A DNA stretch of 64,000 bases from Azolla caroliniana (taxonomy: Eukaryota > Plantae > Polypodiophyta), in NCBI GenBank assembly GCA_043228905.1, contig JBHGNT010000009.1:10230001-10294000 (forward strand), written 5' to 3'. This document shows, piece by piece, positions 18,352-61,656 of the stretch. Numbering within the stretch: position 1 is the stretch's first letter; each line of letters starts with the position of its first letter. Position numbers and translations under genes: made by a program. Under the pieces are notes generated by a model. The model was not told where the DNA came from. It was given only the letters and a program-made list of their open reading frames with translations, and searched no databases.

Positions 18352-18679
18352 TTTCTTTTATTGTAATTAGGTTACTGTAGTGGTAACTTGATAACATTAG
18401 AAGAATTGTGTCTTAGGTTCGAAACCCAATTTTCTCACCTCTCTATTATATACTTCATCTCTCTCTCTCTCTCTCACCCCTCTCAAATTAAAAATTCATA
18501 TTAGCCCGAAGAGTAAGCCGAGGTTCAAATATAATTATATGATTTCCAAATGTAATGATTTTGTCGAAATCTTTTTCTTAATCGTGAAAATGACAACACA
18601 ATGGATGTTACATGCAATTGTGACTTGAAAGTTCCGGAAATTAAAAATGATATGCATTTGATTCTTGGGTAAAAACATT

Positions 18680-19940: not shown

Positions 19941-22781
19941 GCGACGTGTCTATTAGCTAGCAAATCATAAATAGGGCCGACGAGGGAATTGCCGCCATGG
20001 ACAATGCAGGTCGCTCAACTAATGGAGTGTGCAATCTGCACCGTCTAATTTGGAATAAAAAAACGTGCAATAAAAAAATCAATGAGAGGTTGCCCAACTC
20101 CGAGTCCTTGGTCGCCCAACCCTATTAGTAGCCACCCAATTGCCTATTGTGGTCATCCAACCTACCTAACATAACGTGGTCACCCAACCTACCTAATGTG
20201 GTCTCCCAAGCTACCTAACATAAGTGGTCACCCAACCCACCAATGAAGTTTGGTCACCCAACCAAATTTAATTGTGGTCACCCAACCGACGTGTGGTCGC
20301 CCAACCCATCAAGTGTTGTGCCTTGCCCAACCAAGCAATTCACGTCGCCCAACCGCATGTATCCCCAGCCAAGTTTGGTCGCCCAACCGACCAAGCAGGT
20401 CACCCAACCGACGTGTACAAAACCCTGAAACCTGTCATTTTCTTGTATTTTTTCAAATGAGATTGTCAAGGTTTTTTGTCGGGAAAGGTTTTCAAGCAGC
20501 CAGTCATCGACTGCATCCATTCACCACATTTGCCATTGCCACCCATTTATTTCGTAAACTTGTATGTATTTTACTTGTTTCAACTTTTTCTGTAAATTGT
20601 TTTTGGTGTAGGTCATATTTTTCATGTTGAGGGTTTAGGGTTTTGCAAGGTTGCTTGCTTTCAGAAAATGTTTAGGGTTTTTCTTGATTATGGATTATTG
20701 GTTATTTAGGTTTTCGGTGGATTTATATTGAGAATCAACCTCAACTTCCCTAGTGTAGGAACACAACTTAGTATATTCAAGTATGTGAACACCCCACCTC
20801 CTAAATATAGTAACTAGTGTGTCATTGAACCTTAAAGGTTCTATCACACGTATATAGTGTAGTTAAGTCTCTACCTCTCTTTAGTAAGTGGTGATTGTAT
20901 AGAGAGAAGGTGACTACATAAAACACCTTTCTCCTACTCCTTGTAACTGGTTGGTTGTCTTACTCTCGTTAATACAGTTGTTTTCTTGTATAACTCTCTC
21001 TCTCTCTCTCTCTCTCTCTGCTACACACACACACACACACACACACACATAAACACACATATCTCTTTTGCTGCACAGAATCATATCCGATTCTTTACAA
21101 TTTATGATTAGTTTTTTTGTGTATCATATTTTTCATGTCAAGGGTTTAGGGTTCAGGAAAATGTTTAGGGTTTTGCACGATCACTTGATTTTAGAAACTG
21201 TTTAGGGTTTTGCTAGATTATTGATTATTTAGGGTTTTGGTTGATTTATGATTAATTTTTTTAGTGTAAATCATATTTTTCATGTCAAGGGGTTAGGGTT
21301 TTGGTTGATTTATGATTAATCTTTTTGGTTTAAATTATATTTTCCATGTCGAGGGTTTAGGGTTCGGGAAAATGTTTAGGGTTTTGCTTGATTATTGATT
21401 TCAGAAAATGTTTAATAGGGTTTTTCTTGATTATTGATCATATAATATTTATTATTTATTATTTATTATTTATTATCTAGGGTTTTGCTTGATTTATGAT
21501 TGTTTCTTTTGCTTGATTTAGGCTTTACCTGATATACTTGATTTTAGATTTATGCTTTTACTTTATTAAAGATAATATTGGGTGTGCTTGAGTACTTATT
21601 TCAAAAAATGTTTGATTTTTATTTACGATTTTGTTCGATTTCTATATGTTTTCTTTTGCTTGAGTTAGGTTTAGATTTTGTTTGATTTTGAATTTTTGCT
21701 TTTGCTTGATCGTGTAGATGACTACCAAGACCAAGTACAAAGAGTCGCTTCTTATGTAAATATGAACCTTTAATGCTTTTTTAGTGTTGGAGGATTAAAT
21801 CTTTGGATTAGGTCATAACATGTGTTTATTTGGTGAAATAGTGGAAAAAGGCGGGCATATCCACTAAAGAGGGTGGTGTGTCAACCAATACACAAAAGAC
21901 ACAACACTCATCCAATGTGTCCACACCACCTAGACAGAGACGACCCAAAATGCAAGTTAGACGGAAGGAGGTGGAGTCGGTGAAAGATGTTGTCCCATTA
22001 ACATGAGATTCAGATGACATCGCACCAAATTTGGCCACGGTAAAAATTGGAAGTGCCAATGCCATCAGATTGTGGATCCAAACACCAGACAAACAGTTTG
22101 TTAGGTTTTTGATTTGGAATATAATTTGTAAACTTTTAGATTTAATGGTCACAGCTTGAGTCAAATTGCATGCATGTTTCTTTGAAACAGGTAACATCTT
22201 ACATGTTGAAGGCTTGATCTCGTCTTTGACGTTGTGGATTAAGATCTTCAGACGATGTGCAAGGATGGAGAAATGGCATCCACATGGACCATGCCATTAT
22301 TCACCATGTGGATGGGGTATACCTCATGTTTTGGTTGGATCTCAAGTTTTTTAAGTCAAGTAGTACTTAATTTTTTGTTGGATCTCAAGTTTTTGTTGTT
22401 CATCTCAAGTTTTTGATGTCAACTAGTACTCAAGTTTTGGTTGAATCTCAAGTTTTTGATGTGTCAAGTTTTTGTTGTTTATCTCAAGTTTTTAAATCAG
22501 GTCACCCAACCTATTCTAGTGGTTGCCCAACCTATTACTCAATTGGCCCAACTTATTATTAGGTTGCCCAACCTATAATCAAGTCACCCAACCTGGAATA
22601 ATCAGAGTTGGGCGATTAGATGTGGTTGGACGACCTCTGGCAACTTTTCTTTTGCGCGTTCTTTTTTATCTAAATCGGACGGTGCTGATCTCATGCGTCA
22701 TCAATTTAGCGACCTACATTGTCTGTGACAACGATTCCCTGACCAATCATATTTATGATTTGGTGGCGGATAGACACGAGC
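19941..22781. mobile_element. Non-autonomous TIR DNA transposon (MULE-like)
   Basis: ~160-bp imperfect TIRs (19941-20100 vs 22620-22781); flanks GTATATGT/ATATATGT; subterminal GTCACCCAACC arrays; no transposase ORF. Confidence 0.75.
20726..21099 (+). mobile_element. Copia solo LTR nested in the TIR element
   Basis: T(A)TTGAGAATCAA...TTCTTTACA termini match the Copia D LTR (51571-52037); perfect TSD ATTTA. Confidence 0.8.
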
Positions 22782-28000: not shown

Positions 28001-30105
28001 TTGGCATAAAGCAAACACGCTATTCTTATCGACGGGGCACTCCCATCCCATAGCTTCCCGGATGCCTTCCGCGGTGCTTCGGATCTCGTTAGAGTGGGTT
28101 TTCTCAGTGTTTTCTAGCACCTCCGGCCAAAAAGACACCTTTGCTCCCGATGACTCCCTGACACGTATTCCCGCAATTGTCACGTAATTGTTCTTCGCCG
28201 CTATTTCCTCCTCTAGGACCTTCTTCATGCCGCCTTTTCGGAAGTTTGGTCGGAGCGGCTTCCGAGAGTCCATCAAATGAATCCGATTTCCCTCGTAATA
28301 GATAAGATCCTGTCGTAGCGCTTCCTTGTGCTCGTGGCAATCCCTTCGATCATGTTCGGTGCTATCGCACCATATGCATCGACGGTCCATATACTTGGAA
28401 CTTGTGGGACGGTCATTCGACTTCTTCACTATCTCGATTTTTAGATTCTCCATCTCCTTCAGCAAGTGCTCCACGTAGTTGCGTCGATTCCCTTCTCAGT
28501 TGTAGCTTCCCGAGCCCACGGTGGATGGTCTTCCGCTCCGGATCTCGGTTTCGGAATCGTTTTCGAAACCCTCTTTTCTTCATTGGCAAGTCATTGCCCC
28601 CTCTTTGTGTATCACCCGATGATATCCCACACGTTTTCCCATGTTTCGAGGCCGCTCTCGGTAGTCGTGTCCTCTAGAAGCACTCCAAGATCCTTCTGGT
28701 CCCGGACGTCTACGGCTCGTAAGAATATGATAACTTTGTCCGGTGCGAGGATAGCTTGATCTCTCGCAGAAAACCTCCCGAATTGACTTTCGAATGACGA
28801 AAACACATCGAGGACCTTCATCCCCTTGTCCGGCGTTTCTACCCAATCCTCGAATCCTCTTCGCGTTGCCCTGGAGGAGTCCTCGATAGCGAACGTGGTC
28901 TTTAGCCCCTCTTCAAACGCTTCCCACGTCGGATTTTGTTGTCGTAGCCCGTGGATACTTGCTTGAAGCCCGTCGGTGGCCACCCGGTTGAAGGATGCCA
29001 CTTGCAGTCCTTCCGAAATCCCGCACCGTAGCATTTCCGCCTTGTAGTCCCGAAGATAGCGTGATACGTCCTTTCCGTTGCACGAGCCGCTCTACTGCCG
29101 CCGCTATCTCCGACATCGCACGTTGTTCCTGAAGCATCCGCTCGAACATCATCATGATGGTGTTAGCCTCCGGTTGATTTTCCATCTCCTTGCCACCCGT
29201 GTTCACGTCGGTTCACCACATGTGTCGTGCCTTTTGGCTCCGGATCGTTGCGTGAGTCGGGGGGGAACCGTTGAGGTTTTGGACTAGGAGAAAGAAGAAT
29301 ATGAGATAAGGCTCCTTATGAATCGATTGCAAGAAAGAGAAATATTTGAAAGAAGATATGAACCTCGTGAATCCCACGAGTATAGTGTATTAATTGATAC
29401 TTAGAATGTAAGAGAGAAATAGATGGAAAAAAATTGTGAATCCCACGAATATATTAGATTGATCCAAATCCTTGTAAAATAATCAACAACCTCTATACAT
29501 CTTTCTCTCTTCCTTATATAGTGTTGGAAGAGTCTAAGTTTATCACATGCAAGCATCATGCTTTTCCTATCTTTAGTTTTCATGCACACTGCATGTGCAT
29601 GATTAGCTTTCTATCTCATCTTTTCTTTTAACTCGAGTGTCTATGCATGAATAAGTTTTTGTACCATGCATGTCTAGAAATTTTACATGGGATAAAGTTT
29701 AGTATAACTTTAAAATTCATAATACGCTAGTATAATGATAAGGCTTAACATTATTAACATGGAGGTGCAAGGTTCGATTCTTGCCCTATGCATGTAATAT
29801 ATAATTTTATACTTTCTTCTATTTACAAATATGTCTCTTCATGTGGTGAGAAACTCTCACCGGCCTTCTTCATCCGGCTCTTGCCGGTTTTCTTTATCCG
29901 GTTCTGACCGGATCCTCCTCACCGGTCCTCTTCGTCCGTTTCCCACCGACTCTCACCAGCCTTCTTCATCCGGCTCTTGCCGGGTCTCCTTACCGGTTTC
30001 GGTCCTCACCAGTTCTTCCTTCTGGTTCTCACTGGGTACTCCATATCCTATCCGGAGAAACCAAAAATGTAATTTTTCACGTAGTGTGCGGATTACACTA
30101 CGACA
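25061..30105 (-). mobile_element. Trp-primed Gypsy Y' (3'-truncated, internally deleted)
   Basis: 5' LTR 29223-30105 (TGTCG...CGACA); PBS at 29202-29218; gag-PR and pol fragments homologous to Y; RT core deleted at ~26312; 3' end lost at ~25061. Confidence 0.92.
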
Positions 30106-32380
30106 ACGCGTTTGACCTTTTAGAAGATCAGTAAACGGCGTCATCAATTAGGAGTAATTACGATGGGATTTTTGCAAAAACCCGACTAAACCAAGGAATG
30201 ATCAAACTTCTCGAATGTTCTGAAGAGTGGGCCATAACTTGATTTTCTCGATGCGAGAAGGATCAATTTCAACTTCTCGTTCGGTGATGAGATGTCCAAG
30301 ATAAGTAATTGATTTCTTGAAGAACTCACATTTTGAGATCTTCGCATAAAATTGTTTGTCACGCAATGTTTGTAAAACAAAGCGGACATGTTTAGCATGT
30401 TCTTGTAATGTATGACTATAAACTAAATATCATCCAAGAAAATAATGACAAATTTTCCAAGTTGTTCTCGGAAAATGTCATTCATTTCTTGTTGAAATGT
30501 AGCCGAAGCATTGGTCAAACCAAAAAGCATAACCAAAAACTCATAATGGCCATAGCGCATATGAAATGCCGTTTTAGGAACATCATCCTCACTTATACAA
30601 ATTTGATGGTAGCCAGTACAGAGATCAAGTTTCGTAAAATACCGAGCTCCCTGGAGACGGTCAATTAGATTGTCGGCCTGAGGCAATGGATACAAATTCC
30701 TGATCGTCACTTTATTCAAGCATCGGTAATTAATACACATACGCCATGTGCCCTCTTTCTTTTTAACCAAGAGAACTGGTGCACCCCATGGAGATTTACT
30801 ATAACGTATATAACCCATTCGTAAATAGTCCTTGAGTTGCTTAGATACCTCATCCTCTTCGGATCAACTTAAGCGATAAGGAGGTATACTTATTGGTGCA
30901 GTGCCAGGTACAATATCTATACGATGGTCTATATTACGTTTAGGGGGTAACGCATCTGGTAGTTCACTTCAAAAAACATCACGAAAATCATTTAAGATTT
31001 CATCAAGTTGTTGTTGTTCAAAATATGTTAATTGAACCGAGACATTATTGATATTGTAAACGTGAATGTCTGGATCAAGTACTCAATAAAATAGAGTAGA
31101 ACAAGACAACTCGGATATTGATGGAGAGGAACAATCGAGAGGGATTGTTTTTTACACATTGAATAAATTGAGTACAGTCGTTCAGTAAAAATGTAATTGA
31201 ATGATGAACCCAATCAATAGATAAAGAAGAGCTTTTATTATAGAACCAGGGATAACCCAGTATTACATCAATGGTACAAAGATTCATTACATGGAAGTCT
31301 ACTTCCTCTATATAAGTATCAATAGAAATTCATAATGAATGAATCGCCCCGTTGATGTATTGTACTCTTCCATCAGCCAAGTGCACCATATAGGTGTGAT
31401 CACTTACGGTGGATTGGATTCCCTATATCTGAACCAAATGATCATTCACAAAGTTGTGTGAGCTTCCCGAATCAAATAAAAATTGTATGGGAGATCCATT
31501 GATATACCCGTTTGCACGTAGTAAATCATTGGGACCCAATACATAGTGAGGGAAAGAACATTGACAATTACTTAAATGATGTGTATAGACCTGAAGGACA
31601 TTAGGAATCTGACCTTTATGGTCTACAGTTTTAGCTTTGCTGTCGTGCTCTTTTCGTTGGAGCTTTCGACATTGCTCTTTGGTATGACCCTTCTTTTTGT
31701 AGAATACGCAAAAAGGATGTTGTCACATACAATCGTGATCCATGAATTCGTTGGGTGTCTTGCGTTTCCCAGCGAATTGCGACTACTTAGTCCCGGGTGC
31801 TTCGTTGAGTTTATTGTGGTCCTTCTTCGAAGTGCGTTGATAGCGAAAAACTATTTCAACGGCCTCTTCGAAGGATTTTGGATCCTTATCGTGCACTATC
31901 CAATGATAATCCAAATTGGGGATGACATTGACAAAAGAAGCTATTAACCAATTGTCCCCTTCTAGACCCGATTTTTGGATTTGGGTTCTAGCATGGTGAA
32001 CATTGTCTTCTAGTGAAGAAAATTTCCTGCTAGAGAGGTTCATTAAAGCTTGAGCTGCCTCAGTTCGAGAGGGAGGTTGTAGAAATTGGCCCTTAAAAAC
32101 TGTGACAAAATCTGTCCAGGTATTGGGCAATTTCCCCAAAGTACGAAGCCCACACCACTAGGCGGCGGCCTTACCCCCTAGTTCTCGGTCGACATATGCA
32201 ATCTTTGTACTATCTGGCGTGGGATAGAGCTCAAAATGAGACTCCCATCGGCCCAACCACATGCAGATTGCTTCTTCAGTTCTTTCCTTTTTTTCTCCCC
32301 TAAATGGCTAAACGACAAACGATGGTTCACCCTGTTGCTCATCAGGTTTATTAGTCTCACGTTGTAAACTAATGACACGT
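30106..32380 (-). pseudogene. Degenerate gag-PR-RT of X
   Basis: Retrotrans_gag TWTDFVTVFK (31783-32139); protease LFDSGSSHNFV near 31470; [15 protein letters not shown]...[13 protein letters not shown]...IFLDDI (30423-30818). Confidence 0.9.
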
Positions 32381-33226
32381 TGTCGTAGTGTAGGTTGCAC
32401 ACTATGTGGAAATTATATTTTTGTCCCTCCGGATAGAGAATGGAGTGCTCGGTGAGAACCGGAAGAAAACGGCATACCGGCAAGGAGGAAAACGGCATAC
32501 CGGCAAGGAAGAAAACGGCATACCGGCAAGGAAGAAAACGGCATACCGGCGAGGAAGAGCCAGATAAAGAGACATAAATGTAAAAAAAAAAGGAAATACT
32601 CACTACTGCGCAAGGCGTGATTCGAACTCTACACCTCCACGTAGCCAAACCTCAACTTTACCATTATGCTACCTTACCTTTAGTGTTCTATAAATAGATT
32701 TAATAACTATAAGTCCTTTATTTGCGCCTACCTTTATTAAAAGGTAAATCATGCATTTTTAGAGAGCGTGAATATTTTATAGAAAAACGCAAGCAACTAA
32801 AAAAGTGACTCATGCACATCTAGCGTGCATGAGCACTATATTTAGCAAATAAAAGCAAGGATTAGAAAGGCATCACATGCACATTTAGTGTGCATGAACA
32901 TATGAGAAAAAGCATGTAGCTATGCTTAGTCTCTCCCATTACTATATAAGGATGGGGAGCACATTGTAGTTTTTGTTGATTATTTGGATTAAGTATTAAT
33001 CAATACAAAAATTATTCGTGGGATTCACGATTTATACATCTACTTCTCTCTTAACACCCTAAGTACCAATTAATATAGTATACTCGTGTGATTCACGAGT
33101 TTCTTATCTTTCTCTTCGCTATTTATTCATAATTAATCTCTATCTCACGAACTTCTTTCTCCTAGTCCAAGACCTCTGTGGTTCCCACCCGACTCACGCA
33201 ACGATCCGGAGCCGAAAGGCACGACA
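32381..33226 (+). repeat. 5' LTR of Y (4 copies of 23-bp GAAGAAAACGGCATACCGGCAAG)
   Basis: TGTCGTAGTG...GGCACGACA direct repeat. Confidence 0.96.
32607..32678 (-). ncRNA. tRNA-like / Pol III promoter cassette inside the Y LTR (also ~39098-39169; homolog ~29722-29792)
   Basis: A-box TAGCATAATGG (32671-32661); B-box GTTCGAATC (32627-32619) 44 nt later; acceptor-like GTAAGG/CCTTGC pairing; T10 run downstream (32591-32582). Confidence 0.55.
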
Positions 33227-33230
33227 CAGT

Positions 33231-33248
33231 TGGTGAACCCGACGTGAA
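33231..33248 (+). promoter_or_regulatory. Primer-binding site for tRNA-Trp
   Basis: TGGTGAACCCGACGTGAA is the reverse complement of the recalled plant tRNA-Trp 3' end (TTCACGTCGGGTTCACCA). Confidence 0.88.
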
Positions 33249-33264
33249 GACGGGTGGCAAGGAG

Positions 33265-35304
33265 ATGGAGGCTCAACAAGCTAACAATATGATGGCGATG
33301 TTCGAACGGATGCTTCAAGAACAACGCACGATGTCGGAGATTTCGGCATCAGTAGAGCGGCTCGTGCAACGCAACGGGCAATTTAATGGTAAGGATGTGT
33401 CGCGATATTTGCAGGACTACAAGGCGGAGATGCTCCGGTGCCGGGCTTCGGAAGGACTGCAAGTGACATCCTTTAACCGGGTGGCGACCGACGGGCTTCA
33501 AGGGAGTATCCACGGGTTGCAACAACAAAATCCGACGTGGGAAGCATTCGAAGAGGCGTTAAAGACCACGTTTGCCATCGAGGACTCCTCCAAGGCAACG
33601 CGGAGGGGATTCGCGGATTGGGTGGAAACGTCGGGTAAGGGGCTGAAGGTCCTCGAAGTGTTTTCGACATTCGAAAGTCGGTTCGGGAGGTTGTCCGCGA
33701 GAGATCAAACTATTCTTGCACCGGACAAAGTCATCATGTTTTTGCGAGCTGTGGACGTCCGGGACCGGAAAGATCTCGGAGTGCTTCTTGAGGACACGAC
33801 CACCGAAAGCGGCCTCACCGAAACATGGGAAAGCGTGCGGGATATCATCGCGCGGTACACGAAGAGGGGGCAATGGCTTGCCAACGAAGAAAAGAGGGTT
33901 TCGGAACCGATTCCGAAACCGAGAACGGGACTGGAAGACCATCAACCGAGGGCTCGGGAGATTACGGCCGAGAAGGGAGTCGACGCGTCTACGGTGGAGC
34001 AGCTGCTGAAGGAGATGGAGAATCTAAAGATCGCGATGGTGAAGAAGTCGGATGACCGCCCCACAAGCTCCAAATATACGGATCGACGGTGCATATGGTG
34101 CGATAGCGCCGAACACGATCGGAGGGATTGCGACGACCATAAGGAGGCGCTACGACGGGATCTCATCTACTACGAGGGAAACCGGATTCATTCGATGGAC
34201 TCTCGGAAGCCACTCCGACCGAACTTCCGGAAAGGCGGCATGAAGAAGGTGCTCGAGGAGGAGTTAGCGGCAAGAAGCAACTATGCGACAACCGCGGGAA
34301 TATGTGTCGGGGAGTCATCGGGAGCGAAGGCGTCTTTCTGGCCGGAGGTGCTAGGAAACACCGAGAAAACCGACTCCAACGATATCCGAAACACCGCGGA
34401 AGGCGTCCGGGAAGCTACGGGATGGGAGTGCCCTGTCGACAAGAATAGCATATACGCCCTGTGTCAATTACATGAGGTGTATGTGGACGAGAAACGACGG
34501 CGCACGGAGGATGCGGCCGGACCATTGAAGATACCGGAAAGCTGGAACTCCAGAGGTAAGGGAAAAGAAAAGGCGACTCCGGCATTCAAGCTCGCCTCGG
34601 ACATAGAACAACAAACCGACTTGAAAAGAGTGTTCGAGGAAAGAATCTTGGATAGCCGGGTAGATTTTTCGCTGCGGGAACTACTCGGAATAGTGAAGAA
34701 GGAGTTTCACGATCTTCTCGTGGATCTCGTGAAAAGGAAGAGACAAAGTACGGAGGAAAATGCTCCAAGGGTGAATGCAAATACCGTTTCAATGAACGAC
34801 ACCGAAGTGGAAGGCGAAATTCCGAACTCCCACTATACAAGGCTACACTGGGCACGTGCGACTACGGAGACTCCGGTCCGAATCGGCAACATCAAAGAAC
34901 CCGTGCTAGCATTGATTGATCACGGATCGGAGATCAACTTGATGTCCAAGGAGTTCTACCGAAAGGGGAAGTGGCCTATAAACACCAACCATGGATGGAA
35001 GATTCGGGCAGCCACGAAAACGACAGAAGACCTATTTGTAGCTTGTCCGGATGTGACGGTAAAGATCGGGGATGTCGAAATTGACCAAAATTTCTTTGTG
35101 CAGGATGAGGTTTCACATTCTGTCATCCTCGGCCAACCCTTTATCACGGCTTCACGGATGGAGACGAAGGTGCTCGATAGTGGTGCGGCTTTTGCGCGAA
35201 TTCGGAGCCAAAACGGAGGGAAATCCGTCCAATTCCTAACGGTGCCGGCAAATCACGAAAGGAACAAGAGGGAACTCTTGTCCCAAGTGAGAATGGATTT
35301 TTAA
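33265..35304 (+). CDS. gag: Gag-protease polyprotein of Y
   Basis: Open frame; CX2CX4HX4C knuckle CIWCDSAEHDRRDC; aspartic protease ALIDHGSEINLM...VILGQPF. Confidence 0.92.
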   Translation: MEAQQANNMMAMFERMLQEQRTMSEISASVERLVQRNGQFNGKDVSRYLQDYKAEMLRCRASEGLQVTSFNRVATDGLQGSIHGLQQQNPTWEAFEEALKTTFAIEDSSKATRRGFADWVETSGKGLKVLEVFSTFESRFGRLSARDQTILAPDKVIMFLRAVDVRDRKDLGVLLEDTTTESGLTETWESVRDIIARYTKRGQWLANEEKRVSEPIPKPRTGLEDHQPRAREITAEKGVDASTVEQLLKEMENLKIAMVKKSDDRPTSSKYTDRRCIWCDSAEHDRRDCDDHKEALRRDLIYYEGNRIHSMDSRKPLRPNFRKGGMKKVLEEELAARSNYATTAGICVGESSGAKASFWPEVLGNTEKTDSNDIRNTAEGVREATGWECPVDKNSIYALCQLHEVYVDEKRRRTEDAAGPLKIPESWNSRGKGKEKATPAFKLASDIEQQTDLKRVFEERILDSRVDFSLRELLGIVKKEFHDLLVDLVKRKRQSTEENAPRVNANTVSMNDTEVEGEIPNSHYTRLHWARATTETPVRIGNIKEPVLALIDHGSEINLMSKEFYRKGKWPINTNHGWKIRAATKTTEDLFVACPDVTVKIGDVEIDQNFFVQDEVSHSVILGQPFITASRMETKVLDSGAAFARIRSQNGGKSVQFLTVPANHERNKRELLSQVRMDF

Positions 35305-35358
35305 AGCGGACTGTTGCGGAGTGGGGAAGTGATAGTCCGAGAAGCCCTGATACCCCAC
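35295..35358 (+). promoter_or_regulatory. Predicted -1 programmed ribosomal frameshift signal
   Basis: G_GAT_TTT immediately before the gag-PR stop; 5-nt spacer; 11-bp stem 35307-35317/35329-35339; loop GTGGGG complementary to CCCCAC at 35353-35358; -1 frame is open into pol. Confidence 0.75.
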
Positions 35359-38300
35359 ACAGGAAGAAAACTCTCGGAGCAAAACAAGTACGAATCGGCC
35401 CGGATGGGGCATCTACGTACACGGCCGTAACTGGAGGGATGAAGAAACAATACCGACAAGTGGAGGATAAGTTACGGTCGGCATCAATAATAAAAGAAGA
35501 CGAAGAAATCGTGGGAGTGATCGAGGAAGTGTTCTATGGGAATACACTACAACGGCTTGAAGAGCTTGCGGAGGATAAAAGCCAAGGGAACCGGGTAGTC
35601 CTGGTGGAATCGGTCGAGATGTACGAGATCGTTGCGAAAATGGGGCCGGATGTGCTCCGCAAAGAAGAAGCAATGGTAAGTACGAAATACAAGACCGTGG
35701 AGAAGAAGGTGAAACCGGCCGCGGGACCACTACCCGCCGATAGCGAACAAAAGAAGAAAGAAGTCTCGGGAGATCCGACACTTCGGAAGTCCGTGGATAT
35801 CGGACATGCCTTCACAGATGAGACCCGGAAGAAACTTCGGATCAGTGGAGGTGGGTTCCTCTTACAAGAAGAAGAAAAACGGTTTCGAGAGATGTTGGAG
35901 CAACATGGCAAAGCATTCGCGTTCACATCGAGGGAGATCGGATGCATTGATCCAAAGATAGTGGAGCCGATGGTGATTTTCACGATTGATCATGTACCGT
36001 GGAACCTGAAGCCGATTCCGGTGCCACGGGCGCATATTCCGAAAGTCATCGACTTGCTCAAGGAGAAGGTGGCGATGGGGATTCTAGAGCCATCAAGTGC
36101 TCCGTACTCAAATCGATGGTTTACGGTTCCGAAGAAGAATGGGTCACTCCGATTCATCCAAGACTTGCAACTGGTGAACAAGGTCACGATCCGGAACTCG
36201 GGAGTCGGTCCGATAGTGGACGAATTCGCGTAAGCTTTTGCCGGACGTGCGATATACTCCATCGGGGACCTATACTCGGGGTATGATCAATTCCAACTAG
36301 CTGTGGAGAGCCGAGACATCACTACCATGCGGACACCGATAGGACTAGTTCGAATGTGCACACTACCACAAGGAGCGACAAACTCGGTTGCACATATGAT
36401 GAACGCGATGAACAAGGTGCTTCGAGATTGCATCCCGGAGATAACGATGCCGTTTCTAGATGACATTCCGATGAAAGGATGCGCGGTGGAAGAAAAAGAT
36501 GAGACTATGGATGATCGGGGATGCCGAAAGTTCGTGGTCGACCATATTCATGATTGCGAGAAAGTGTTGCGAAAGCTAGAAGATGTGCACCTAACACTTT
36601 CCGGGGAGAAATCGGCATTCGGGCAAGAAGAAATATTGGTGGTCGGACATCTATGTGGACCCTACGGCCGAAGACCGTCACCAACAAAGATCGATGCGAT
36701 TCAAGCTATGAAGGAAGTATGTGAGTCAACATCGGAAGTCCGAAGGTTTCTGGGTGCGTGTGCATTCTATCACATATGGATTCCGCACTATGCACATATA
36801 GCGGACCCGCTCTATCACTTGTTGCGGAAAGGTAAGAAATTCGAGTGGAAACCGGAACACACTAAAGCCATGAGGAAGCTCAAGAAGACACTATGGAGGG
36901 CGGAATCACTTAGGAAGCCAAGCTACGAGCGGCCAATCATAGTAACGGTTGATACAAATCCAACCGGTATCGGGTGGGTCATCAATCAAGCCGACTCGGA
37001 TGGTTCGCGGTATCCGATCCGATTTGGAGCAAAGGTCCTCAATGAAAGGCAACGCGGATATGCACAAGTCAAAAGAGAATTGTGGGGAGTCGTGTCGGCG
37101 ATAAAATCGGATCGGGATTATTTGATCGGAGCTGAAGTGGTGATCGAGACGGATTGTCTTCCGATACTCGGGATGATGCGGTGTTGTACGATACCGGATG
37201 TGGCTATGCTAAGGTGGATTGCATATGTCAAGTCACTTAATCCGGAGGTTCGACACATCTCGGGGAAGGACAACGCGGTAGCGGACATGTTATCGAGGGC
37301 GCGGTTTGAAGACGACATAACCGAATCAGATAATGAAGAAGTTTCTGAAGACTACTTCACGTCAGAACACATATGCCGAGTGAACGTGATCCGAGAATTC
37401 CGGGAAGAAGAATACGAGGGGGAAACCTTGATGATCGGGAAGATGCTACAAGAGGTCGAGGATTCAACCAATGATAAAGAAAGGAGAGCCGAGATCCGAA
37501 GGAAGAAGAGGCAAGTCCAAAAGTTCTTCTTGGAAAACGGTTTAATATGGAGGACGCCGAAAAGACCGGATGGGATACCACTTCGAGTAGTTGGGACGAA
37601 AGAGCAACGAAACCGGATAATGTCCGAGTTCCACGAATCCGATTGGGCTGGACATCGAGGAACATGGGCAACTTTTGTGAAAATCAAGCAAAGATATTGG
37701 TGGAAGAACATGTATAAAGATGTCGCGGAGTTCACAGAAAGCTGCGAGAAATGTCAAGTCTACTCCGGGGTCCGACACCGAGATGAGCTGCATCCGACAT
37801 TCTCACCGACAATCAACTTCAAGTGGATGGTCGACATTGTAGCTATGCCGACCGGGATTGGACAAAAGAAATACTTGGTGTTAGCTCGAGAAGATCTCAC
37901 AAACCAAGTTGAAGGTTGAGCGCTTCGGAGGAAAACGTGTGCCGCGGTGTGCCAATTTCTTTTGGAAGAAGTGTTTTGTAGGTACGGCTGCGTAGGACAA
38001 GTGATTGCAGACCGGGGAGAACTCGACTCGGACAAAGCTAGGGGATTCTTCGCCAAACATGGAGTTCGGTTAACGTTGACAACGGCCTACAATCCGGAGG
38101 CCAACGGGAAGATCGAACGAGGACATAGTCCGATCGTGAAAGCACTTGCGAAGGCATGCGACGGAAGGGTGAAGGATTGGCCACAAATGCTTCCGTATGC
38201 ACTATGGGCGGATCGGACGACGCATAGCTCCGTGACCGGTTACATGCCGGCAGAACTCATGACCGGACAAGCACCGGTAATGCCAACGGAAACCGCAATC

Positions 38301-38906
38301 GCGACATGGACAATACTACCGTGGAAGGAAGAGATGAGCCGGGAAGAACTACTAGCGGTCCGGATACGACAACTGGAGGGAAGACCGAAAGATGTAGCGG
38401 AAGCGTCACGCCGACAACAAGAAGCACGGTTCCGGAACAAAAGCCGGTTCGACACAAAGCACCGACTACGACCGAGGAGGATTGAAGAAGGAGATTGGGT
38501 GATCGTCTATGATAGTAGCTTGGACCATCAACATACAACGATGCGGAAATTCGCGAAAAGGTGGTTCGGGCCGTACGAGGTTCGGCAGGTCTTCGACAAC
38601 GGGACGTACCGACTGTCCGAGTTGGATGGAACAATACTACGAGTGCCTATAGCCGGGAAGCGGGTGAAGATTTTCAAGAAGCGGACCGACGACAAACCTT
38701 ATGTGATCCAAGTCGAGGCCGACAACGAGGAGCAATCGGACGAAGACCACAATGATGCGGGAATCGAAGAAAGTGGATTACAACTCATAGTCGACATAAG
38801 GGGAGAATCGGAGGAAGCTTCGGATGAAGACGGATACGAAGAATCAAGAACTTCGGCACATACCGGAGGATGTGCGGGTTTGGAGGGGGCGAGTGTCGTA
38901 GTGTAG
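35295..38906 (+). pseudogene. pol: Pol (RT-RNase H-integrase) of Y with two in-frame stops
   Basis: Single frame with TAA at 36231 and TGA at 37917; LPQGATNS, FLDD, RNase H, H..H/C..C zinc finger, NGKIER and GPY motifs; acidic tail, no chromodomain. Confidence 0.92.
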
Positions 38907-39717
38907 GTTGCACACTATGTGGAAATTATATTTTTGTCCCTCCGGATAGAGAATGGAGTGCTCGGTGAGAACCGGAAGAAAACGGCATACCGGCAAGGAG
39001 GAAAACAGCATACCGGCAAGGAAGAAAACGGCATACCGGCAAGGAAGAGCCGGATAAAGAGACATAAATGTAAAAAAAAAAAGGAAATACTCACTACTAC
39101 GCAAGGCGTGATTCGAACTCTACACCTCCACGTAGCCAAACCTCAACTTTACCATTATGCTACCTTACCTTTAGTGTTCTATAAATAGATTTAATAACTA
39201 TAAGTCCTTTATTTGCGCCTACCTTTATTAAAAGGTAAATCATGCATTTTTAGAGTGCGTGAATATTTTATAGAAAAACGCAAGCAACTAAAAAAGTGAC
39301 TCATGCACATCTAGCGTGCATGAGCACTATATTTAGCAAATAAAAGCAAGGATTAGAAAGGCATCACATGCACATTTAGTGTGCATGAACATATGAGAAA
39401 AAGCATGTAGCTATGCTTAGTCTCTCCCATTACTATATAAGGATGGGGAGCACATTGTAGTTTTTGTTGATTATTTGGATTAAGTATTAATCAATACAAA
39501 AATTATTCGTGGGATTCACGATTTATACATCTACTTCTCTCTTAACACCCTAAGTACCAATTAATATAGTATACTCGTGTGATTCACGAGTTTCTTATCT
39601 TTCTCTTCGCTATTTATTCATAATTAATCTCTATCTCACGAACTTCTTTCTCCTAGTCCAAGACCTCTGTGGTTCCCACCCGACTCACGCAACGATCCGG
39701 AGCCGAAAGGCACGACA
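38894..39717 (+). repeat. 3' LTR of Y (3 copies of the 23-bp unit)
   Basis: Direct repeat of 32381-33226. Confidence 0.96.
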
Positions 39718-41597
39718 ACGTGCCTGAAGAGCACTTTGAGATTGCCGAAGTTCAGTCATCTGTTGAGCGGTGAAACTAAGGTATTGGGTTATTTGCGAAA
39801 AATACATCTCAATGGACATTTGTCCAGGAGGATTCCCTTGAGTTCCTTCCGCTTGAGCAGATGACATCGGGTCGTTATTTTGAGCCATTAAATGATTATT
39901 TCTGGAAAAGAAATAGGATAAGGTTAGAGAGATAGTCATAACATCATGTCGTGATGTAAACATATCATGGGCGAACATTAATCGATATCATTATCTCACG
40001 TCAATACCCCTTTAGACATATGAGATGAGGTTCAAGATCAGGTTACTATGGTAACACAAAGGTGTTTTAAAAACTATGGGGGTGACAATTTAATGTCTTT
40101 CCCTGATCTCTATATCAATTTTTTCATGGCGGCTCCCTGAGGCTCAACCATGTATGTTCGCGTCATGAATAGTTTATACACGAAAAAAATGTTAACAATA
40201 AACTATGTTTCGGTGCCCACATATGTGGTTTCGTCTCTTTAATTCCTATTACGAGGACCCTGAAGTGCACTTAGACCTTAAGTCTAAACATGTGTTATAA
40301 TCGTATGTATCAACGATGATGTATGGTCTTGGTCATATTTGAACTCGAGACCTTGAGAACAAATACATTAAACACTTGAGCCAACCAAATAGATTGCTCT
40401 TCTTTGAATGTTTAATGGTTAATGCGTATAAGAGATATGCAAGGCATTTGCCCATATATGTTTTTTTAAAAGAAACATATATGTCAAGAGTCCTTATTTC
40501 GCCCTCATTTACTACAACTATGTTGGTACATTACCTAACCTAAAGTCTCGTAATTACGATGGCATACGCCAAAGTGCAACCTAATGGTCAAGCCAAATGA
40601 GCCCTCTTTTCGTAGTAGGCCCATGTGGCCCATCACATGGTCACGTCATTACGAATGCCTCTCGTAAGAATGATCTCATGGTGGCATCGTATCCATGTAA
40701 TGAGGGAGGGATGTTGGATACGTGTGTCATAGGAGTGGCCTCACATGAAGTGGGTCAAGCCCTACGTACTCAACATCATTATGGCTATAGGCATTTCTTT
40801 ACGTAACGAAATATTGAAGTCACCAACGGGGATTTCAACAATAAAAAATTGTTGAAAAAAGGGATGGTGACAACGCTATTCTCACAAAAATGTGAGGACG
40901 GCCACCAAGATCCTTTCCCCAAAAAGGAAAACATTCGATTTAAAATCACGTAATAACTTATATATACATATGTATATTATCACATATATACGATCAACTA
41001 CGTATACACGTGACCACATATGCCTATATTAAACAAACTGTTATATTTAATGGCCAAAAATGACGTAATCGAGATACATAATTGAGATACGTAATCGAGG
41101 CATATACCTCTACGCACAAGAGACATACAAAAATAAGGGTTAATCGTAATACACAATTGAGGTATTGACCTCTTACGCATACAAGATCAAACGCATATCA
41201 TTTACAACGAATCAAGGTATTGACCTCATACGTAAACGTAAGATATGTTTGTGAACGTAATACACAATTGAGGTATTAACCTCGTGCGCTACGACACTCA
41301 TCACATATTCAATATACGTCAAATGAGGTATTGACCTCATACACATATGTAAACGTTTTATACAACCAATGAATTACCACGACAACATCATTGAATTAAT
41401 GAAAAAAAATCTACATATTAACCATACACATGATTAGATGGGAGAAGAAAAAATAGACAAAAAAAACAAGAAATATTACCGAAGTTCCTTTATTGATCCT
41501 TGTCTGCATGAAGGCCGATCGCACGTAGATTGATCGCCATCATCAAGAACGCAAAAGACAACAAAAGAAACATTAGAAAATGAGCTATGATACCAAC

Positions 41598-53156: not shown

Positions 53157-56100
53157 TGTCGTGAAGAATTTCGGCTAGAGGCGGAAACCGGGAAATATTG
53201 GCTACATCGGCGGGGTGCACCATATGCACTCACCCTCGTATAATTGTGTGAATAATAGGAGTTAAGTCAGGCCGAAGAATCCCATGTAAATCGGGATTTA
53301 TCCCACATTGTAACGCATCCCTCTCCTTGTTCTATAAAAGGAAGGGATGGTCCCTTGTAGAAGGGTTGCCCATTTTGAGTCTTAAGGGTATACCGTTTGT
53401 GTTTCTTTCGAGGGTTAGCTACATTCTTTCTCTTCTTCGTTTCTTTCTTGCTCCTTCTCGAGGAGTCGAGCAGGAGCTATGACGGCAACCTGTTAGGTTA
53501 GTTTCTCTTCTTCTGTGCGTAGCCGGCTCGCGGCCGAGGTGGTATGCCCCCCCCCCCCCCGTTGTAGGTTGCTTCTGCTTGGCCCTGTGCAAGACCCCGC
53601 TCGGCGCGATGAGCTCGAGAGATCCCCAACGGTGGCTTGGTGGCAGACTGCCGTTGTGACCTAGCCTACCTCAGTTCGAGTTGGAGTAGGAGTTGTAACT
53701 CACTCTTGTAATCATATATATATATATACAAGGTTGTGCATATTCGTGTCTCTGTCAGTGTTGGGTGCTTTCCCTTCCCTGTGTTTCCTGTACATAAGAG
53801 GTGTGCGTTGTGTCGTGTTGCGCGCGTGTTCTCGCCCTCTCTTCCTCTCTCGTGTTTGGTAGCCACCGGTACACGTCCGGAATCGCTTTGGTTCGCGCCA
53901 CCACCAGCGCAGCCGGGACCGGAGAGAAGTCGGCTTCCTACGCTCCATCACTCCCTAGTCCAAGACCCCCGTGGTCCCGCCCCCTTCTATACGCAAGCGC
54001 GAAACTTCGCGACATCTTTGGTGAACCCGACGTGAAGGGCGGCAAGGGAGCATGGAGTCAGAAGATGATGATCTCACGGAGATGGTGGCCGAAGTGGTGT
54101 TGGAGTCTGCACGAGTGGTGATGAGGTGAGAAGCAGCGCAACAAGCGGTTGAGCGAGTGGTCGAAAGAGTCGGCCGTTTCAACGGGGACAAGGTCCCATT
54201 CTACTTGAAAGCCTACAACGCGGAAATGGAAGTGCGTGGCGTAGACGAGGCGTTGAGGCTGGAGTTCTTCTGTCAGGTCGTAGCTATCCGAATGCATGTG
54301 GAAGTAAAGGAGCTCCGTGAGGCTCATAGTTTGTGGGAGGCCTTCGAAGAGGCGCTCCTGAAGGCATACGGAGGGCGGCCGAAAGGCCGGGGAAGACGTG
54401 ACTTCGACCAATGGATATTGTCGGCGAAGACCCACCGGGGCGCAATGAAGGCGTTCCAAGAGTATGAGCGGCGGCTTGCTCGACTCCCGGAGCGGGAACA
54501 AGGTTTGGTGGGGGTGGAAAAAGTCCTGTTGTTCGTTAAGTCGATCGACTGAGCGGAATGGGAGGCCATCGGGATTGAGCTCGAAGACCAGGACGGAGCG
54601 AATGGCCTCACCAAGGACTGGTCGAAGGTCGGAAGGGTGTGTCAACGGTTAGATGATGAGTGAGCCGAGAAGGCTAAGAGGAAGGTGCGCGACGACGTGC
54701 CATCACAGCAGGAAGAGGCCGAATGGCAAAGAGAGTCGGCAAGGGTCGGCGTTGGGGCCAGGATTGCGGAGGCGTACGCAGCTCTCGAGGTGATGCTTGA
54801 GGAAGAGGAAAGATCGAGGCCGCAAGCCGAGACCGAGGAGACGGACATGCCCCACGTAATGGCAGAAGACAGGTACCCCGGTACCACGGGAGAGGGTGTG
54901 GAACATAACGCCCTCTCTACTTGTGGAGAATTGCCGACCGAGGACAAGGTCGGGAGCGGAAAAGAGCCCTCCACGCGGATCCCGGAGACTCCGGTGGTCG
55001 AGCCCGTGTGCCGACATGAGACCGAAGAGAAGGAAGGCGCTGACGAGGAGTCCTGACACGATGCCAGCGAAGAAGGATGGGAAACGGCCTGCGAGGAGGC
55101 CAAGGATGGAAGCGACACGGAATGATCGGCATTCCGATTCGGATGGAGCGTGATCCGGATGTGGATGACTCGACCGAAACCGGCCTAAGGCGTGAAAGAC
55201 CAGTGACGGGTTATAGAGCCCGATCGGTAGGGCTCGGTTCGGTACGATAGTGCCAGCGCGGAAGAGGGTGTGAAACAAATCGCCCTCTTTTACATGAGGA
55301 CACAAGCCGGCCAGGCGAAGGCTGCAGATCAGGAAGCTAATGATCGAGGTTGCGGAGAGAGACCGACGGGTTTTGGACACCGCTGCTCGAGACTCCGGAC
55401 ATTGGAGAATCAAGTGCAGGCGGCACTTGATCGATTGACGTCCAGATACTTCTCACCGAACGTGCTTGGGGAGCGGTACCCCGAACGAGCGTCCGCAAAT
55501 CATTACGGGACGGAAACACCACGTCTTATCCGGAGACTCAGGCAACCGGCAACGAGCGCCGGCGTGAGACCTGGAGAGATGGGAGATGGAGGCGGGTACG
55601 CGAGAAGGAGAGCAGCGACGAGTTCGGGAGGAGTACAAAGGATGAAGAGGAGAACAAAGACCGGTCCTACGGAGGTCCTCACACCGATACGGCTGTCGGC
55701 CCGAGTGCCGACGTGAGTCCTACAGGAGAGATCGATGGCGACAGGAGAACGAGACCCGGCAATCCAGAGAATGACGAACGAGAACCGGGCAGAGTGGACT
55801 TTCGGATAACCGTTCCAGGAGGGAGGAAGAGGAGGCCTAAGACGAGGCTGGGAACACGGTACGTCAATACCACGGGAGAGGGTGTGGAGCGAGCCACCCT
55901 CTCAGCTTGCGAAAGAATGATGACCTAGGATAAGGGTCAGAGATACGATGAGCCCGAGGAGGATCCTTCACACTGGATCCGGAGACTCCGGCGGTCGGCC
56001 TGAGAACCGGTGTGAGACCTAGAGTGACGATCGGTGGCGGTGAGGGGACGAAGGCAAAGAGCTGCGGGCGGGCAAACCGAGGTCCCACGAAGATCCTCAC

Positions 56101-57907
56101 ACCGACCCGGCGGTTGGCCCGAGAACCGGAGTCCGGTCCTATGGGACCCTCACACCGATCCGAAGACTCCATAGGAAAGGATGATGGCGGCAGGTGAATG
56201 TGTTCAGACGACGGAAAGCAGAGAAGGAAGGTATCAGGCCGGTGAAGCGGCTACAAACCAAATCGGACCGACGGGCAAGGTCACGGGAATAAGGGAGTCC
56301 GGTCCTACGGGATCCCCACACCAAACCAGAGACTCCGGCAGTTCAGCCAACGTGGCAACATGAGACCGAGAGAGAAGGTTGGTGGCGGCGGGAAACGAAA
56401 CCCGGCAAAACGAAGGCGGGAACTGGCTACGCGGAAGACACGAGGAGAGTCGCGGAGGACTCCGGCAAAAGACACCCGAATTTCGGCAAGCAGAGAAACG
56501 GAGTCCGGTCCTATGGGACCCTCACACCGATCCGAAGACTCTGGCAGCGGGCTAACAAGAGTCGGCATGAGACCTAGGGAGAAGGACGGTGGCCGTAGGG
56601 AACGGGACCCGACGACACGAGATAGCGGGTCGGGAGTCGGTAAGACAGGGGCGGATGAAGTGCGAAACCCTTATCGGCCGGTTACAGTTTCGGAAGAAGC
56701 CAGTAGGGGCAAACATGGGGAGGTGTGTCGGGCCGGAAAGGCACACCTGGGACGGAACTAGAGTCTCGCGAGTGGCCATCGTGGGCCGAAACGAAGCGTG
56801 ACTACGGGACGGTGTTCGGCACGGGCGGTGCCGAATAAAGGAAGCGGAAGACGGCACATGGGAGGTGCCGGAAACGAGGTGACGGGTGCATAGTGGACTG
56901 CACAGGGTTGGAGTGAAGGGATGACAAGGGAGTCCGGAGGAGGATCCTCCACACCTGCTTCGTAGATCTCAGCAAGACAATCAGAGTAATGATGACTGAC
57001 ACGGCAAGCCCGGGATAACAAATTGGTGGGGGCGAGGGGACGACGACAAGGTGAAAGACTTAGGACCTGTTGCAGCAGCGCAAGACGGAAAGGGCCAAGC
57101 AGGCTACTACGGGGTGTTCCTCGGATGCGGACGACACCGGTATGCAGATGAGCGGCAATCCACGATCTGGCCCGGAAAGGGGCCGACAAGGCATGCAAAG
57201 AACCAGAGTGCGGCACAGGCAGCGCCAAATGACGGACGAATGGTCAACGGAGGCCAAGTGGGCCACTACGGGCGTTCCTCAAGCGGAGGACATCGGGCAT
57301 ACAGCGGAGAGTGGGGTGTGCATGCGGCCGAACAAGGGCCAACGGAAGTACGCGTACTACGGAGATCACGACAAAGGACCCATTGACGGGTCAAACGAGC
57401 CTACGGGGAGGTAAGCGCGAACGAAGAATCGAAGCCGACGGTTCAAACCGGCAGCAAGACGAGATGCGGATGACGGAAGACCGGTTGCTCACTGGCCGAA
57501 ACCTCTCACCCTTCGCCGGATTTGGCACGTACCGGTGGACGTGCGGTTTGGTGGGGGCGGATGTCGTGAAGAATTTCGGCCAAAGGTGGAAACCGGGAAA
57601 TATTGGCTACATCGGCGGGGTGCACCATGTGCACTCACCCTCGTATAATTGTGTGAATAATAGGAGTTAAGTCGGGACGAAGAATCCCATGTAAATCGGG
57701 ATTTATCCCACATTGTAACGTATCCCTCTCCTTGTTCTATAAAGGAAGGGATGGTCCCTTGTAGAAGGGTTGCCCATTTTGAGTCTTAAGGGTATACCGT
57801 TTGTGTTTCTTTCGAGGGTTAGCTACATTCTTTCTCTTCTTTCGTTTCTTTCCTGCTCCTTCTCGAGGAGTCGAGTAGGAGCTATGACAGCAAGCTGTTA
57901 GGTTAGA
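53157..57907 (+). mobile_element. Non-autonomous Trp-primed LTR element Z (gag remnant only); 3' LTR truncated by the assembly gap
   Basis: 5' LTR 53157-54014 (TGTCG...CGACA); PBS TGGTGAACCCGACGTGAA at 54019-54036; gag N-terminus RFNGDKVPFYLKAYNAEM; PPT TTGGTGGGGGCGGA; 3' LTR from 57562. Confidence 0.9.
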
Positions 57908-59835: not shown

Positions 59836-59924
59836 GTGTTTGAAAGACTACCCAAAGAAGAGAATCACATGTTAGAGATACAATCTTTGTTAGCAGTTGG
59901 AGAGAATCACATCTTTGTCAGCAA

Positions 59925-60655
59925 TTGGAGAGATTGAAGTCAACCGATGAAGGTGGATATTTGAGTATTCCATGGCTTTGCCAAGCTATGGAAGAAGTGG
60001 TTCTTTCTACACATGGATATGTAGAGGCATTTATCCCCGATCTTCAACAGGCTCTTGTAGAAGGTGATTTCAAATGGTTAGATGAGTACTTAGATGACAA
60101 TGTTAAGCTTCTTGACATTTGCCGAACTCTCCGCAATGCCATCTCAGATATAAAAACCTACGATTCTTATGTTGATCTAGATATACATAACTTCTCACCA
60201 CATATAGTTGGTTATGAACCTCACCTGAGAAGATCTAAAAATTCTCTTCTTAGATGCATTGAGGCCTTAAAAAGGAAAGAAGAGGAGATGAATCAAATGG
60301 GTCAAAGAAGATCTAAGCTTGAGAATTGTAGCTCTATGTTGAGAAGAATGGGTGAGAAGTTACATATGGAAAATCTGAAGAAGCAGTTGAATGCTTTGAA
60401 AAGATGCAATCTAATGGTATCTTCCTTGATATTGTTACATTTATAAGCATTCTCAAAGCATGTTGCAACTCAGGATCAATCAATGAAGGCCAAGTAATGC
60501 ATTGTGAGGTTGAAAGAAGGGGTTTTCTCTGAAGAAGAAGAAATCTTTGAAGGACATCCATAATATCCTACATCGCCATGGATAGGAAGCTTCGAGAAGG
60601 TGTCGCTGGAGCTTTCTAGGTCAGTAGAGAGGTGTTGCCGTGTGAAGAGATGGTA
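59925..60655 (+). pseudogene. BPS1/ROH1-like (DUF793) gene fragment
   Basis: LSIPWLCQAM...WLDEYLDDNVKLLDIC motif; no N-terminus; frameshifted 3' part. Confidence 0.65.
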
Positions 60656-60849
60656 AATTGGGGGAGGAAATTCTTGATGATGATGGTGATGGTGGTGGTG
60701 GTGACGAGGCAGATGTCGAAGAGGAAGATGAGTATGGTGAAGATGATGATCAGGACGATGGATATGACGAACAGATGGGGATGTGGAGGGTCGAGGGGGA
60801 TATGATTTATGATGTATTTTGAGAAATAAAAGTGGTATAAATAAATTGG

Positions 60850-61049
60850 TCAAAATAGGTATATAGTGACATTATGGTAAATAAGTTTAGGTTTAAGGGT
60901 ATTTTGGTAAATATACCTTGTATATTTGAGTGTATATTTACTTTATAGAGTGTATTTTTTTGGACATAGGGGTAGTTTGGTAAATTTGGAACTTCCAGGG
61001 GCATTATGGTAAATAGACAAACTTCTAGGGGTATCCTAGTACTTTTCCC
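60850..61049. mobile_element. MULE-like terminal repeat (right end only)
   Basis: Repeated GGGTATTTTGGTAAAT-type motifs ending ...ACTTTTCCC, abutting a truncated Y LTR. Confidence 0.55.
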
Positions 61050-61656
61050 AAATATTTACAAATCCATGTAAATAAACTAGAACTTTACCATTGTATTAAC
61101 TTATCATAAGTGTTATAAATATAGATTTAATAGGCATAAGACTTTTATTGATGCCTACCTTTATTAAAAAGTAAATCATGCATTTTTTGAGTGCATGAAT
61201 ACTTTATTTACAAGAAAAATATAAACCAATAAAAAAATACTCGTGCACATCTAGCGTGCATGAGCACTAGATTTAGGAAATAAAAGTATAGTGGAAAAAG
61301 CAACTCATGCACATTTAGTGTGCATGAACACTTTAGAAAAAGGAAGAAGCTATGCTTAGTCTCTCCCATCCTTATATAAGGAGGAGAGAAAGATGTATAT
61401 GGTTGTTGATTATTTTGTAAGGATTGACCAATATATAATATATTCGTGGGATTCACGAATTTGTCATCTAAATTGTCTCTTACTATCTATATATTGATTA
61501 AATACACTAAACTCGTGGGATTCACGAGATTCATAACTTTCCTCTCTTTCTACCTATTCATTACTTGCCTTATCTCATATTCTTCTTTCTCCTAGTCCAA
61601 AACCTCAGTGATTCCCACCTGACTCACGCAACGATCCGGAGCCGAAAGGCACAACA
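61050..61656 (+). mobile_element. 5'-truncated Y-family LTR (solo or 3' LTR)
   Basis: Aligns to 32630-33226; ends CGAAAGGCACAACA; not followed by a PBS. Confidence 0.88.

Follow-up and report, generated by a model that had tools for sequence, protein, structure and literature searches.

Element Y and the module in its LTRs

The window, by which we mean the whole 64-kb stretch of DNA that was analysed, contains a Phygy-type Gypsy element, here called Y, which occupies 7.3 kb (32381-39717) and encodes gag and pol in a coding body of 5.7 kb (Table 1). Its two LTRs differed by 4 substitutions across 823 aligned positions, plus indels. A TATA-like box was kept in the LTRs of Y and of a sister element on the minus strand (Y') and in a third family LTR, which is truncated; the window also contains a fourth 5' end, at 62870. 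The primer-binding site of Y is presumably of the tRNA-Trp type. The gag and pol frames overlap at 35181-35304 with pol in the -1 frame, which suggests a programmed frameshift, and pol terminates within the 3' LTR, at 38906.

Phygy has been described as a non-chromovirus Ty3/gypsy lineage specific to Physcomitrella (Neumann et al. 2019, PMC6317226). Compared by description with the part of that account available to us, Y is likewise short, its coding sequence fills the interior, its primer-binding site is of a non-Met tRNA type and it is flanked by an NCGN duplication (ACGT); the domain order was gag-PR-RT-RH-INT in a compact interior, and a domain search found no chromodomain in the pol frame. 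Target duplications of the form NCGN were present in 15 of 27 candidate flanks from the window and the fetched loci, with several others NTGN or NCAN. Named relatives were proteins of Riccia, Adiantum, Ceratopteris and Calypogeia.

In the U3 of both Y LTRs, antisense to the element and ~270 nt upstream of the TATA-like box, lies a module with the A box and B box of a tRNA-type Pol III promoter. The boxes are separated by a 32-nt spacer, which we take to correspond exactly to tRNA positions 20-51 given a variable loop of five bases, and the distance from T8 to G53 is 44 nt. The preliminary description had reported an antisense A box, a B box, this 44-nt distance and a run of T10-11 in both Y LTRs, and the coordinates bear this out. 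It had also reported the same layout and a GCAAG/CTTGC hairpin in the diverged LTR of Y', and both were recovered there (29728-29781 on the plus strand). The long T run stood for both LTRs of Y and failed beyond them, the run in Y' being only T4. The third LTR retains the A-box half alone, and MITE-like AT-rich DNA (60790-61056) takes the place of its 5' part, with the breakpoint in the module.

Table 1. Features of element Y, its sister Y' and the truncated family LTR in the window
Feature	Position	Strand	Remarks
5' LTR of Y'	29222..30105	-	Y' lies on the minus strand
Module of Y'	29721..29815	+	antisense to Y'; A box 29728-29738, B box 29771-29781
Target-site duplication of Y	32377..32380	+	4 bp, ACGT; second copy 39718-39721
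5' LTR of Y	32381..33226	+	termini TGTCG...CGACA
tRNA-type Pol III module, U3 of Y 5' LTR	32582..32678	-	predicted unit ~88-91 nt
T10 run, candidate Pol III terminator	32582..32591	-	~15 nt beyond tRNA position 73
B box AGTTCGAATCA	32618..32628	-	tRNA positions 52-62
AGGT	32633..32636	-	tRNA positions 44-47
A box TAGCATAATGG	32661..32671	-	tRNA positions 8-19; 0 mismatches against TRGYNNARYGG
TATA-like box CTATATAAGG	32942..32951	+	predicted Pol II promoter of the Y LTR
gag-protease frame (stop to stop)	33166..35304	+	DUF4100
Primer-binding site	33231..33247	+	common to the whole clade
pol frame	35181..38906	+	RT, RNase H, integrase; interrupted by two in-frame stops
Polypurine tract	38882..38893	+	
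3' LTR of Y	38894..39717	+	
Second module copy, Y 3' LTR	39072..39169	-	A box 39162-39152, B box 39119-39109, T11
Truncated family LTR	61057..61656	+	broken within the module
A-box remnant, third LTR	61098-61088	-	A-box half alone retained

A consensus scan of the window returned 5 matches, against 1-4 in each of 10 dinucleotide shuffles; this barely exceeds chance, so the window alone was not decisive. One match-like arrangement, a free A box and B box 32 nt apart at 18373-18426 (+), lies between microsatellites outside any recognised LTR, lacks AGGT and is unlike the Y module in sequence. The remaining LTRs of the 64-kb window were without a module, among them a second Phygy-type LTR pair of ~345 nt (53157-53501 and 57562-57906), the second copy of which runs into N. 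Elsewhere in the window we noted degenerate telomere-like GGGTTTA repeats within a ~70-nt repeat family (20600-21400) and a BPS1/ROH1-like frame (59844-60446) whose best named match was from Adiantum nelumboides at 63 %, which makes a fern the likely host. The U3 of Y 3' of the module (32740-32900) holds repeated CATGCAC...GTGTGCATG palindromes, a candidate Pol II enhancer motif, which are also present in the distant LTRs L035 and L053.

Occurrence of the module among relatives of Y

Of 221 confirmed metagenome loci, the best 80 by alignment of the integrase C-terminus were taken as relatives, with the module ignored in the choice. They were scanned for the consensus TRGYNNARYGG followed by GGTTCRANYCC with a spacer of 28-40 nt allowed. 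Within 1000 nt downstream of the polypurine tract, the fetched relatives gave 20 matches in 49.3 kb, compared to 1.15 in shuffled sequence, and all 20 had a spacer of 32-33 nt; upstream sequence of the relatives held 9 matches in 204.8 kb, two of them in nested LTRs. A second scan, in which each cluster of LTRs was scored by a matrix trained on the other clusters, gave bimodal scores, with 18 of 46 LTR clusters at 19.8-33 and the remainder at or below 12.9; the best of 12 shuffles per cluster scored up to 19.9. Here the spacer was 32-33 nt in 33 of 35 matches (25-45 allowed). When B boxes were located first, a weighted 23.5 of 43 best A boxes fell at an offset of 32-33, and every other offset received 2.3 or fewer. 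The A and B boxes thus stand at class I tRNA spacing, as they would in a tRNA gene.

The columns conserved among 29 distinct modules were those of a tRNA. G18, G53, T55, A58 and C61 were invariant (29/29), T8, G19 and A44-G45-G46-T47 were each present in 90 % or more, and the complete AGGT, which lies outside the search pattern, was found in 25. Of the 29, 20 were followed by a run of T4 within the next 40 nt and 3 by a run of A4; the combination of A box, B box and downstream T run is the layout of a type 2 Pol III promoter. In both orientations the flanks tracked the strand of the module itself, being A-rich upstream and T-rich downstream, which is the layout reported for plant tRNA genes (in the part of PMC13437025 available). 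Antisense orientation, proposed earlier as a defining trait, did not hold across the family, as 22 distinct modules were antisense and 7 sense. Four LTRs (L039, L068, L053 and L055) carried two or three modules each, and of the 23 modules whose LTR has a recognisable TATA box, 21 lay upstream of it.

The module is distributed widely and patchily. Among complete LTRs, 8 of 14 carried it and 6 did not; other LTRs scored as lacking it whose sequence stops at 1100 nt or at a contig end may be incomplete or interrupted. Two LTRs (L007 and L019) are broken in their first 35 nt, of which L007 was excluded from clustering and L019 is counted among the 28 clusters without a module. On the integrase tree, which omits L036 and L019 as their integrase sequence is short, carriers occupied about nine separate branches (ten with the borderline L011), mixed among non-carriers. 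The possibility raised at the outset, that the module is a one-off insertion in a few copies, is contradicted by its presence in 18 of 46 LTR clusters and about nine lineages. Near sisters also differed in its presence (L049 with and L059 without; L051 with and L046/L047 without), and this, together with the 6 of 14 complete LTRs that lack it, indicates that the module is dispensable. The integrase ends and LTR starts of L049 and L059 are near-identical, the middles of their U3 regions are unlike, and the U3 of L049 contains a long array of short repeats.

All carriers came from one series of assemblies, and none of the five loci from other sources (L033, L037, L061, L076 and L081) carried the module, so the breadth described here is one of element lineages and not of many hosts. 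By comparison of DNA contigs, the family was abundant in three organisms. No relative was found among viral contigs, and the prokaryote genome contigs yielded two stray plant-like contigs, both without the module. Loci L081 and L082 are Phygy-like plant retrotransposon contigs in a cyanobacterial genome bin and are probably host contamination.

Outside the LTRs of this family, an antisense module was seen at ~1770-1825 (-) of L046, near the start of the 3' LTR of a nested, chromodomain-bearing (Tcn1-like) element whose chromodomain (1512-1694) lies ahead of the module. In L019, a foldback repeat (~1530-2120) holds three near-identical modules with a spacer of 33 nt, two of which face each other over a long palindrome; related palindromes occur in L001.

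Conserved boxes and a lost tRNA fold

Selection was examined on 11 orthologous LTRs of the Y clade, picked and aligned by homology with the motif ignored and sharing 546 positions common to all. The longest gap-free run in this alignment was 61 columns (32671-32611), beginning at the first A-box base and ending 7 nt beyond the B box, and the runner-up was 23 columns. None of 63 gap events fell between the boxes, where ~6 would be expected if they were spread evenly. Columns with transversions made up 4 of 22 in the boxes and 137 of 281 in the flanks (Fisher p=0.004), and 7 of 18 in the spacer, from which the boxes taken alone did not differ significantly (p=0.14); as the LTR rows are related, these p values overstate independence. 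The expectation that the boxes would be better conserved than their flanks was therefore upheld by the gap-free run, the absence of gaps and the deficit of transversions.

Between lineages, identity was 62 % and 73 % in the two boxes, and 37 % at positions 20-43, where chance gives 28 %. Three further LTRs resembled those of the window chiefly at the module. L004 is 92 % identical to Y across 5.45 kb of the interior, and in a BLAST search its LTR matched the window at the module only; that LTR, of 477 nt, is otherwise wholly unlike that of Y, which may reflect LTR replacement within the family or chimerism of the contig. Two loci from distant branches of the integrase tree, L035 and L053, had the module as their best match to the LTR of Y'. 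One position of the B box, C56, was T in 5 of the 11 Y-clade LTRs, one of them on a high-coverage contig (L003). CpG decay after insertion would give this change, and many copies are on that account probably methylated and dead.

The fold of a tRNA, in contrast to its promoter, was not retained. ARAGORN called no tRNA on the Y or Y' module under default or relaxed settings, and Rfam returned no tRNA-family match for the window, two short stretches and 12 loci. Pairing in the canonical register over 29 modules averaged 2.0/5 in the anticodon stem, 3.1/5 in the T stem and 2.7/7 in the acceptor stem, the level of shuffled sequence; the D stem alone showed a slight excess (2.17 against 1.74 of 4; 4 of 500 shuffles). 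RNAalifold produced no consensus structure across modules, and covariation was lower than in shuffles. A tRNA identity for the module was accordingly rejected, the cloverleaf being gone, and with it went the suggestion of a tRNA-like fold. The acceptor-like pairing described earlier is real in Y (4/7 canonical pairs), though as a trait of the family it hinged on letters peculiar to Y (Y' 1/7, mean 2.7/7) and was discarded. The predicted Y RNA folds no better than its shuffles (z -0.85). Some families have strong local hairpins (L049, z -4.7; L001, -3.5; L057, -3.4), and no hairpin common to all modules was found. The predicted 91-nt RNA had no stretch of at least 9 nt complementary to the primer-binding site or the interior of Y, in agreement with the earlier statement that the module is not a self-supplied primer.

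Boxes and spacing that are kept while the cloverleaf is lost point to a selected tRNA-type promoter, not to a tRNA. The earlier proposal of a tRNA-derived A/B-box module retained in U3 was in this respect supported, and the module is very probably a tRNA-derived promoter that has been retained better than its flanks.

A possible docking site for Pol III factors

Our preferred reading, to which we assign a probability of roughly 0.45, is that the module is a fold-less tRNA-type promoter in U3 that serves as a DNA docking site for TFIIIC and TFIIIB and prevents silencing from closing the LTR's Pol II promoter. The module would have descended from tRNA genes or from the tRNA-derived heads of SINEs; TFIIIC and TFIIIB would dock on it in U3; and the docked factors, acting as a barrier or as a booster, would leave the adjacent Pol II promoter accessible once the element has inserted at CG sites that can be methylated. 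Judged from the duplications, insertion at NCGN is insertion at such sites. The short transcript of ~90 nt would be a throw-away by-product, and the module an optional accessory that coexisting families would acquire, exchange and lose. A role as DNA is suggested by the conserved boxes and spacing, the free body, the occurrence in both orientations and in tandem, and the fixed position, with the LTR edge on one side and the TATA box on the other. Of the two roles proposed in the preliminary description, the insulator or platform fits better than the antisense small-RNA gene. TFIIIC tolerates variable spacing between A and B boxes, so that the exactness of the spacer and the retention of AGGT go beyond what binding alone would explain.

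These last two features are among the arguments for an RNA product that matters, in which a Pol III RNA of ~90 nt would act as a decoy, as a small-RNA precursor or as an antisense regulator acting on the 3' U3 of its own element, comparable to the Pol III units of foamy-virus U3. The A box, the exact spacing and the terminators are all retained, as transcription would need, and so are AGGT at 44-47, G18/G19, T55 and A58, which are marks of tRNA at the RNA level too; several families (L049, L001 and L057) fold well, and an antisense copy made from the 3' LTR would be complementary to genomic RNA. We nevertheless consider this explanation unlikely, since the body of the module has no common fold or sequence and the Y unit folds at the level of shuffles, and since the existence of sense modules means that antisense pairing is not general. 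Somewhat less probable still is that the modules are passengers, tRNA-derived SINE-like pieces common in the genome that fell repeatedly into A/T-rich U3 regions and were copied along. Their patchiness on the tree, their two orientations and unlike bodies, the decay of the B-box CpG in many copies and the module in the LTR of the chromodomain element nested in L046 all favour it; the look-alikes outside these LTRs, one in the window (18373) and three in L019 among the window and fetched loci, all unlike Y's in sequence, are also what a passenger origin predicts. Against it, 30 of 32 modules lacked a flanking duplication of at least 8 nt and the remaining two cases were overlaps of tandem copies, although old and decayed SINE insertions would escape this test, and a SINE body and tail were absent. 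Moreover, ~30 modules in ~45 kb of LTR contrast with one free copy in the 64-kb window, the spacer is intact though the stems are erased, the orthologues show a deficit of indels and transversions, and 21 of 23 modules lie upstream of the TATA box.

Two other explanations appear very improbable. The boxes might be a landing pad that draws Pol III-targeting retroelements and steers later insertions to U3, and a few breakpoints do coincide with the A box or lie close to it (L015, L018 and L022); these junctions, however, have no element terminus, inspection of the window and 82 integrase-match loci found no insertion upstream of any module, and the Y clade itself targets NCGN. Equally, the boxes might merely resemble those of a tRNA and belong to another DNA-binding factor or a Pol II enhancer. 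Enhancers normally lie in U3 and the B box is near-palindromic, but the invariant columns are exactly tRNA G18, G53, T55, A58 and C61, at class I distances.

Several known systems resemble parts of this picture. The closest is Helenus (TRIMp3; Kojima 2024, PMC10886601), which like Y has a tRNA-derived sequence in both LTRs, conserved near boxes A and B and mostly a non-functional tRNA; according to the available portion of that paper it is not a primer, and a SINE insertion into the LTR was proposed as its origin. Helenus is non-coding, 311-1263 bp long, and its promoter is thought to make the template, whereas Y has gag-pol, 7.3 kb and a TATA box. Those Helenus LTRs of the supplement that were inspected carry it in sense; here most modules are antisense, T runs follow them, some occur in tandem, and their presence is optional. 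The template-making placement of Helenus was thus not what we found, the module of Y being antisense, as are 22 of the 29 distinct modules, with T runs downstream. Modules that mostly point outward and are followed by T runs, in an element with a coding body and its own TATA box, cannot make template. The same paper remarks that Repbase contains 'not a few LTRs' similar to a part of a tRNA, in an analysis limited to elements <1000 bp, and undescribed coding carriers may therefore already sit in Repbase.

The TRIMs Cassandra, which is known in ferns, and Ajax also hold the Pol III promoter of a small-RNA gene inside the LTR, as summarized in PMC10886601, though theirs is a 5S (type 1) promoter in a non-autonomous element with an LTR-to-LTR transcript. 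Foamy virus is an autonomous LTR element with Pol III miRNA units in U3 that have A and B boxes and T-run terminators and can be deleted (Kincaid et al. 2014, PMC3993851); in the part of that study available, its units are hairpin miRNA precursors demonstrated by sequencing, whereas the plant modules are predicted from sequence, keep strict tRNA geometry and have no conserved hairpin. In fission yeast, TFIIIC-bound boxes act as heterochromatin boundaries, and the IR B-box elements, at which TFIIIC limits the spread of heterochromatin, are the nearest parallel to the action proposed here; as described in the accessible text (PMC7464478) they are host chromosomal and transcription-independent, whereas the present module would be a mobile cassette with an A box and a terminator, whose role is predicted. 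The part of the Phygy description available to us (PMC6317226) makes no mention of a Pol III module, and the openly accessible literature searched yielded no account of modules of this kind in plant LTR elements that code for protein.

In summary, Pol III promoters in LTRs were already known (Helenus, Cassandra and foamy virus), and the present carriers differ from Helenus and Cassandra in being coding. Those of tiny non-coding elements make the template, whereas selected modules in large coding elements, in either direction and free of RNA shape, point to a different job. A broader reading, which we regard as possible but doubtful, is that coding fern LTR elements of at least two unrelated lineages (Phygy-like and chromodomain-bearing) repeatedly recruit and exchange a minimal tRNA-promoter cassette, a portable device by which TFIIIC and Pol III of the host would protect the element's own Pol II promoter against silencing. 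The L049/L059 and L051/L047 loci provide natural pairs with and without the module. More than 7,500 tRNA genes have been reported for Azolla (in the part of PMC13578239 available), and it may be speculated that LTR-borne look-alikes could inflate tRNA gene counts in ferns. If the LTR promoter is held open in this way, the transposon would be borrowing the Pol III machinery of its host against silencing, a strategy undescribed for plant transposons in the literature searched, and very many TFIIIC sites would lie scattered across large fern genomes.
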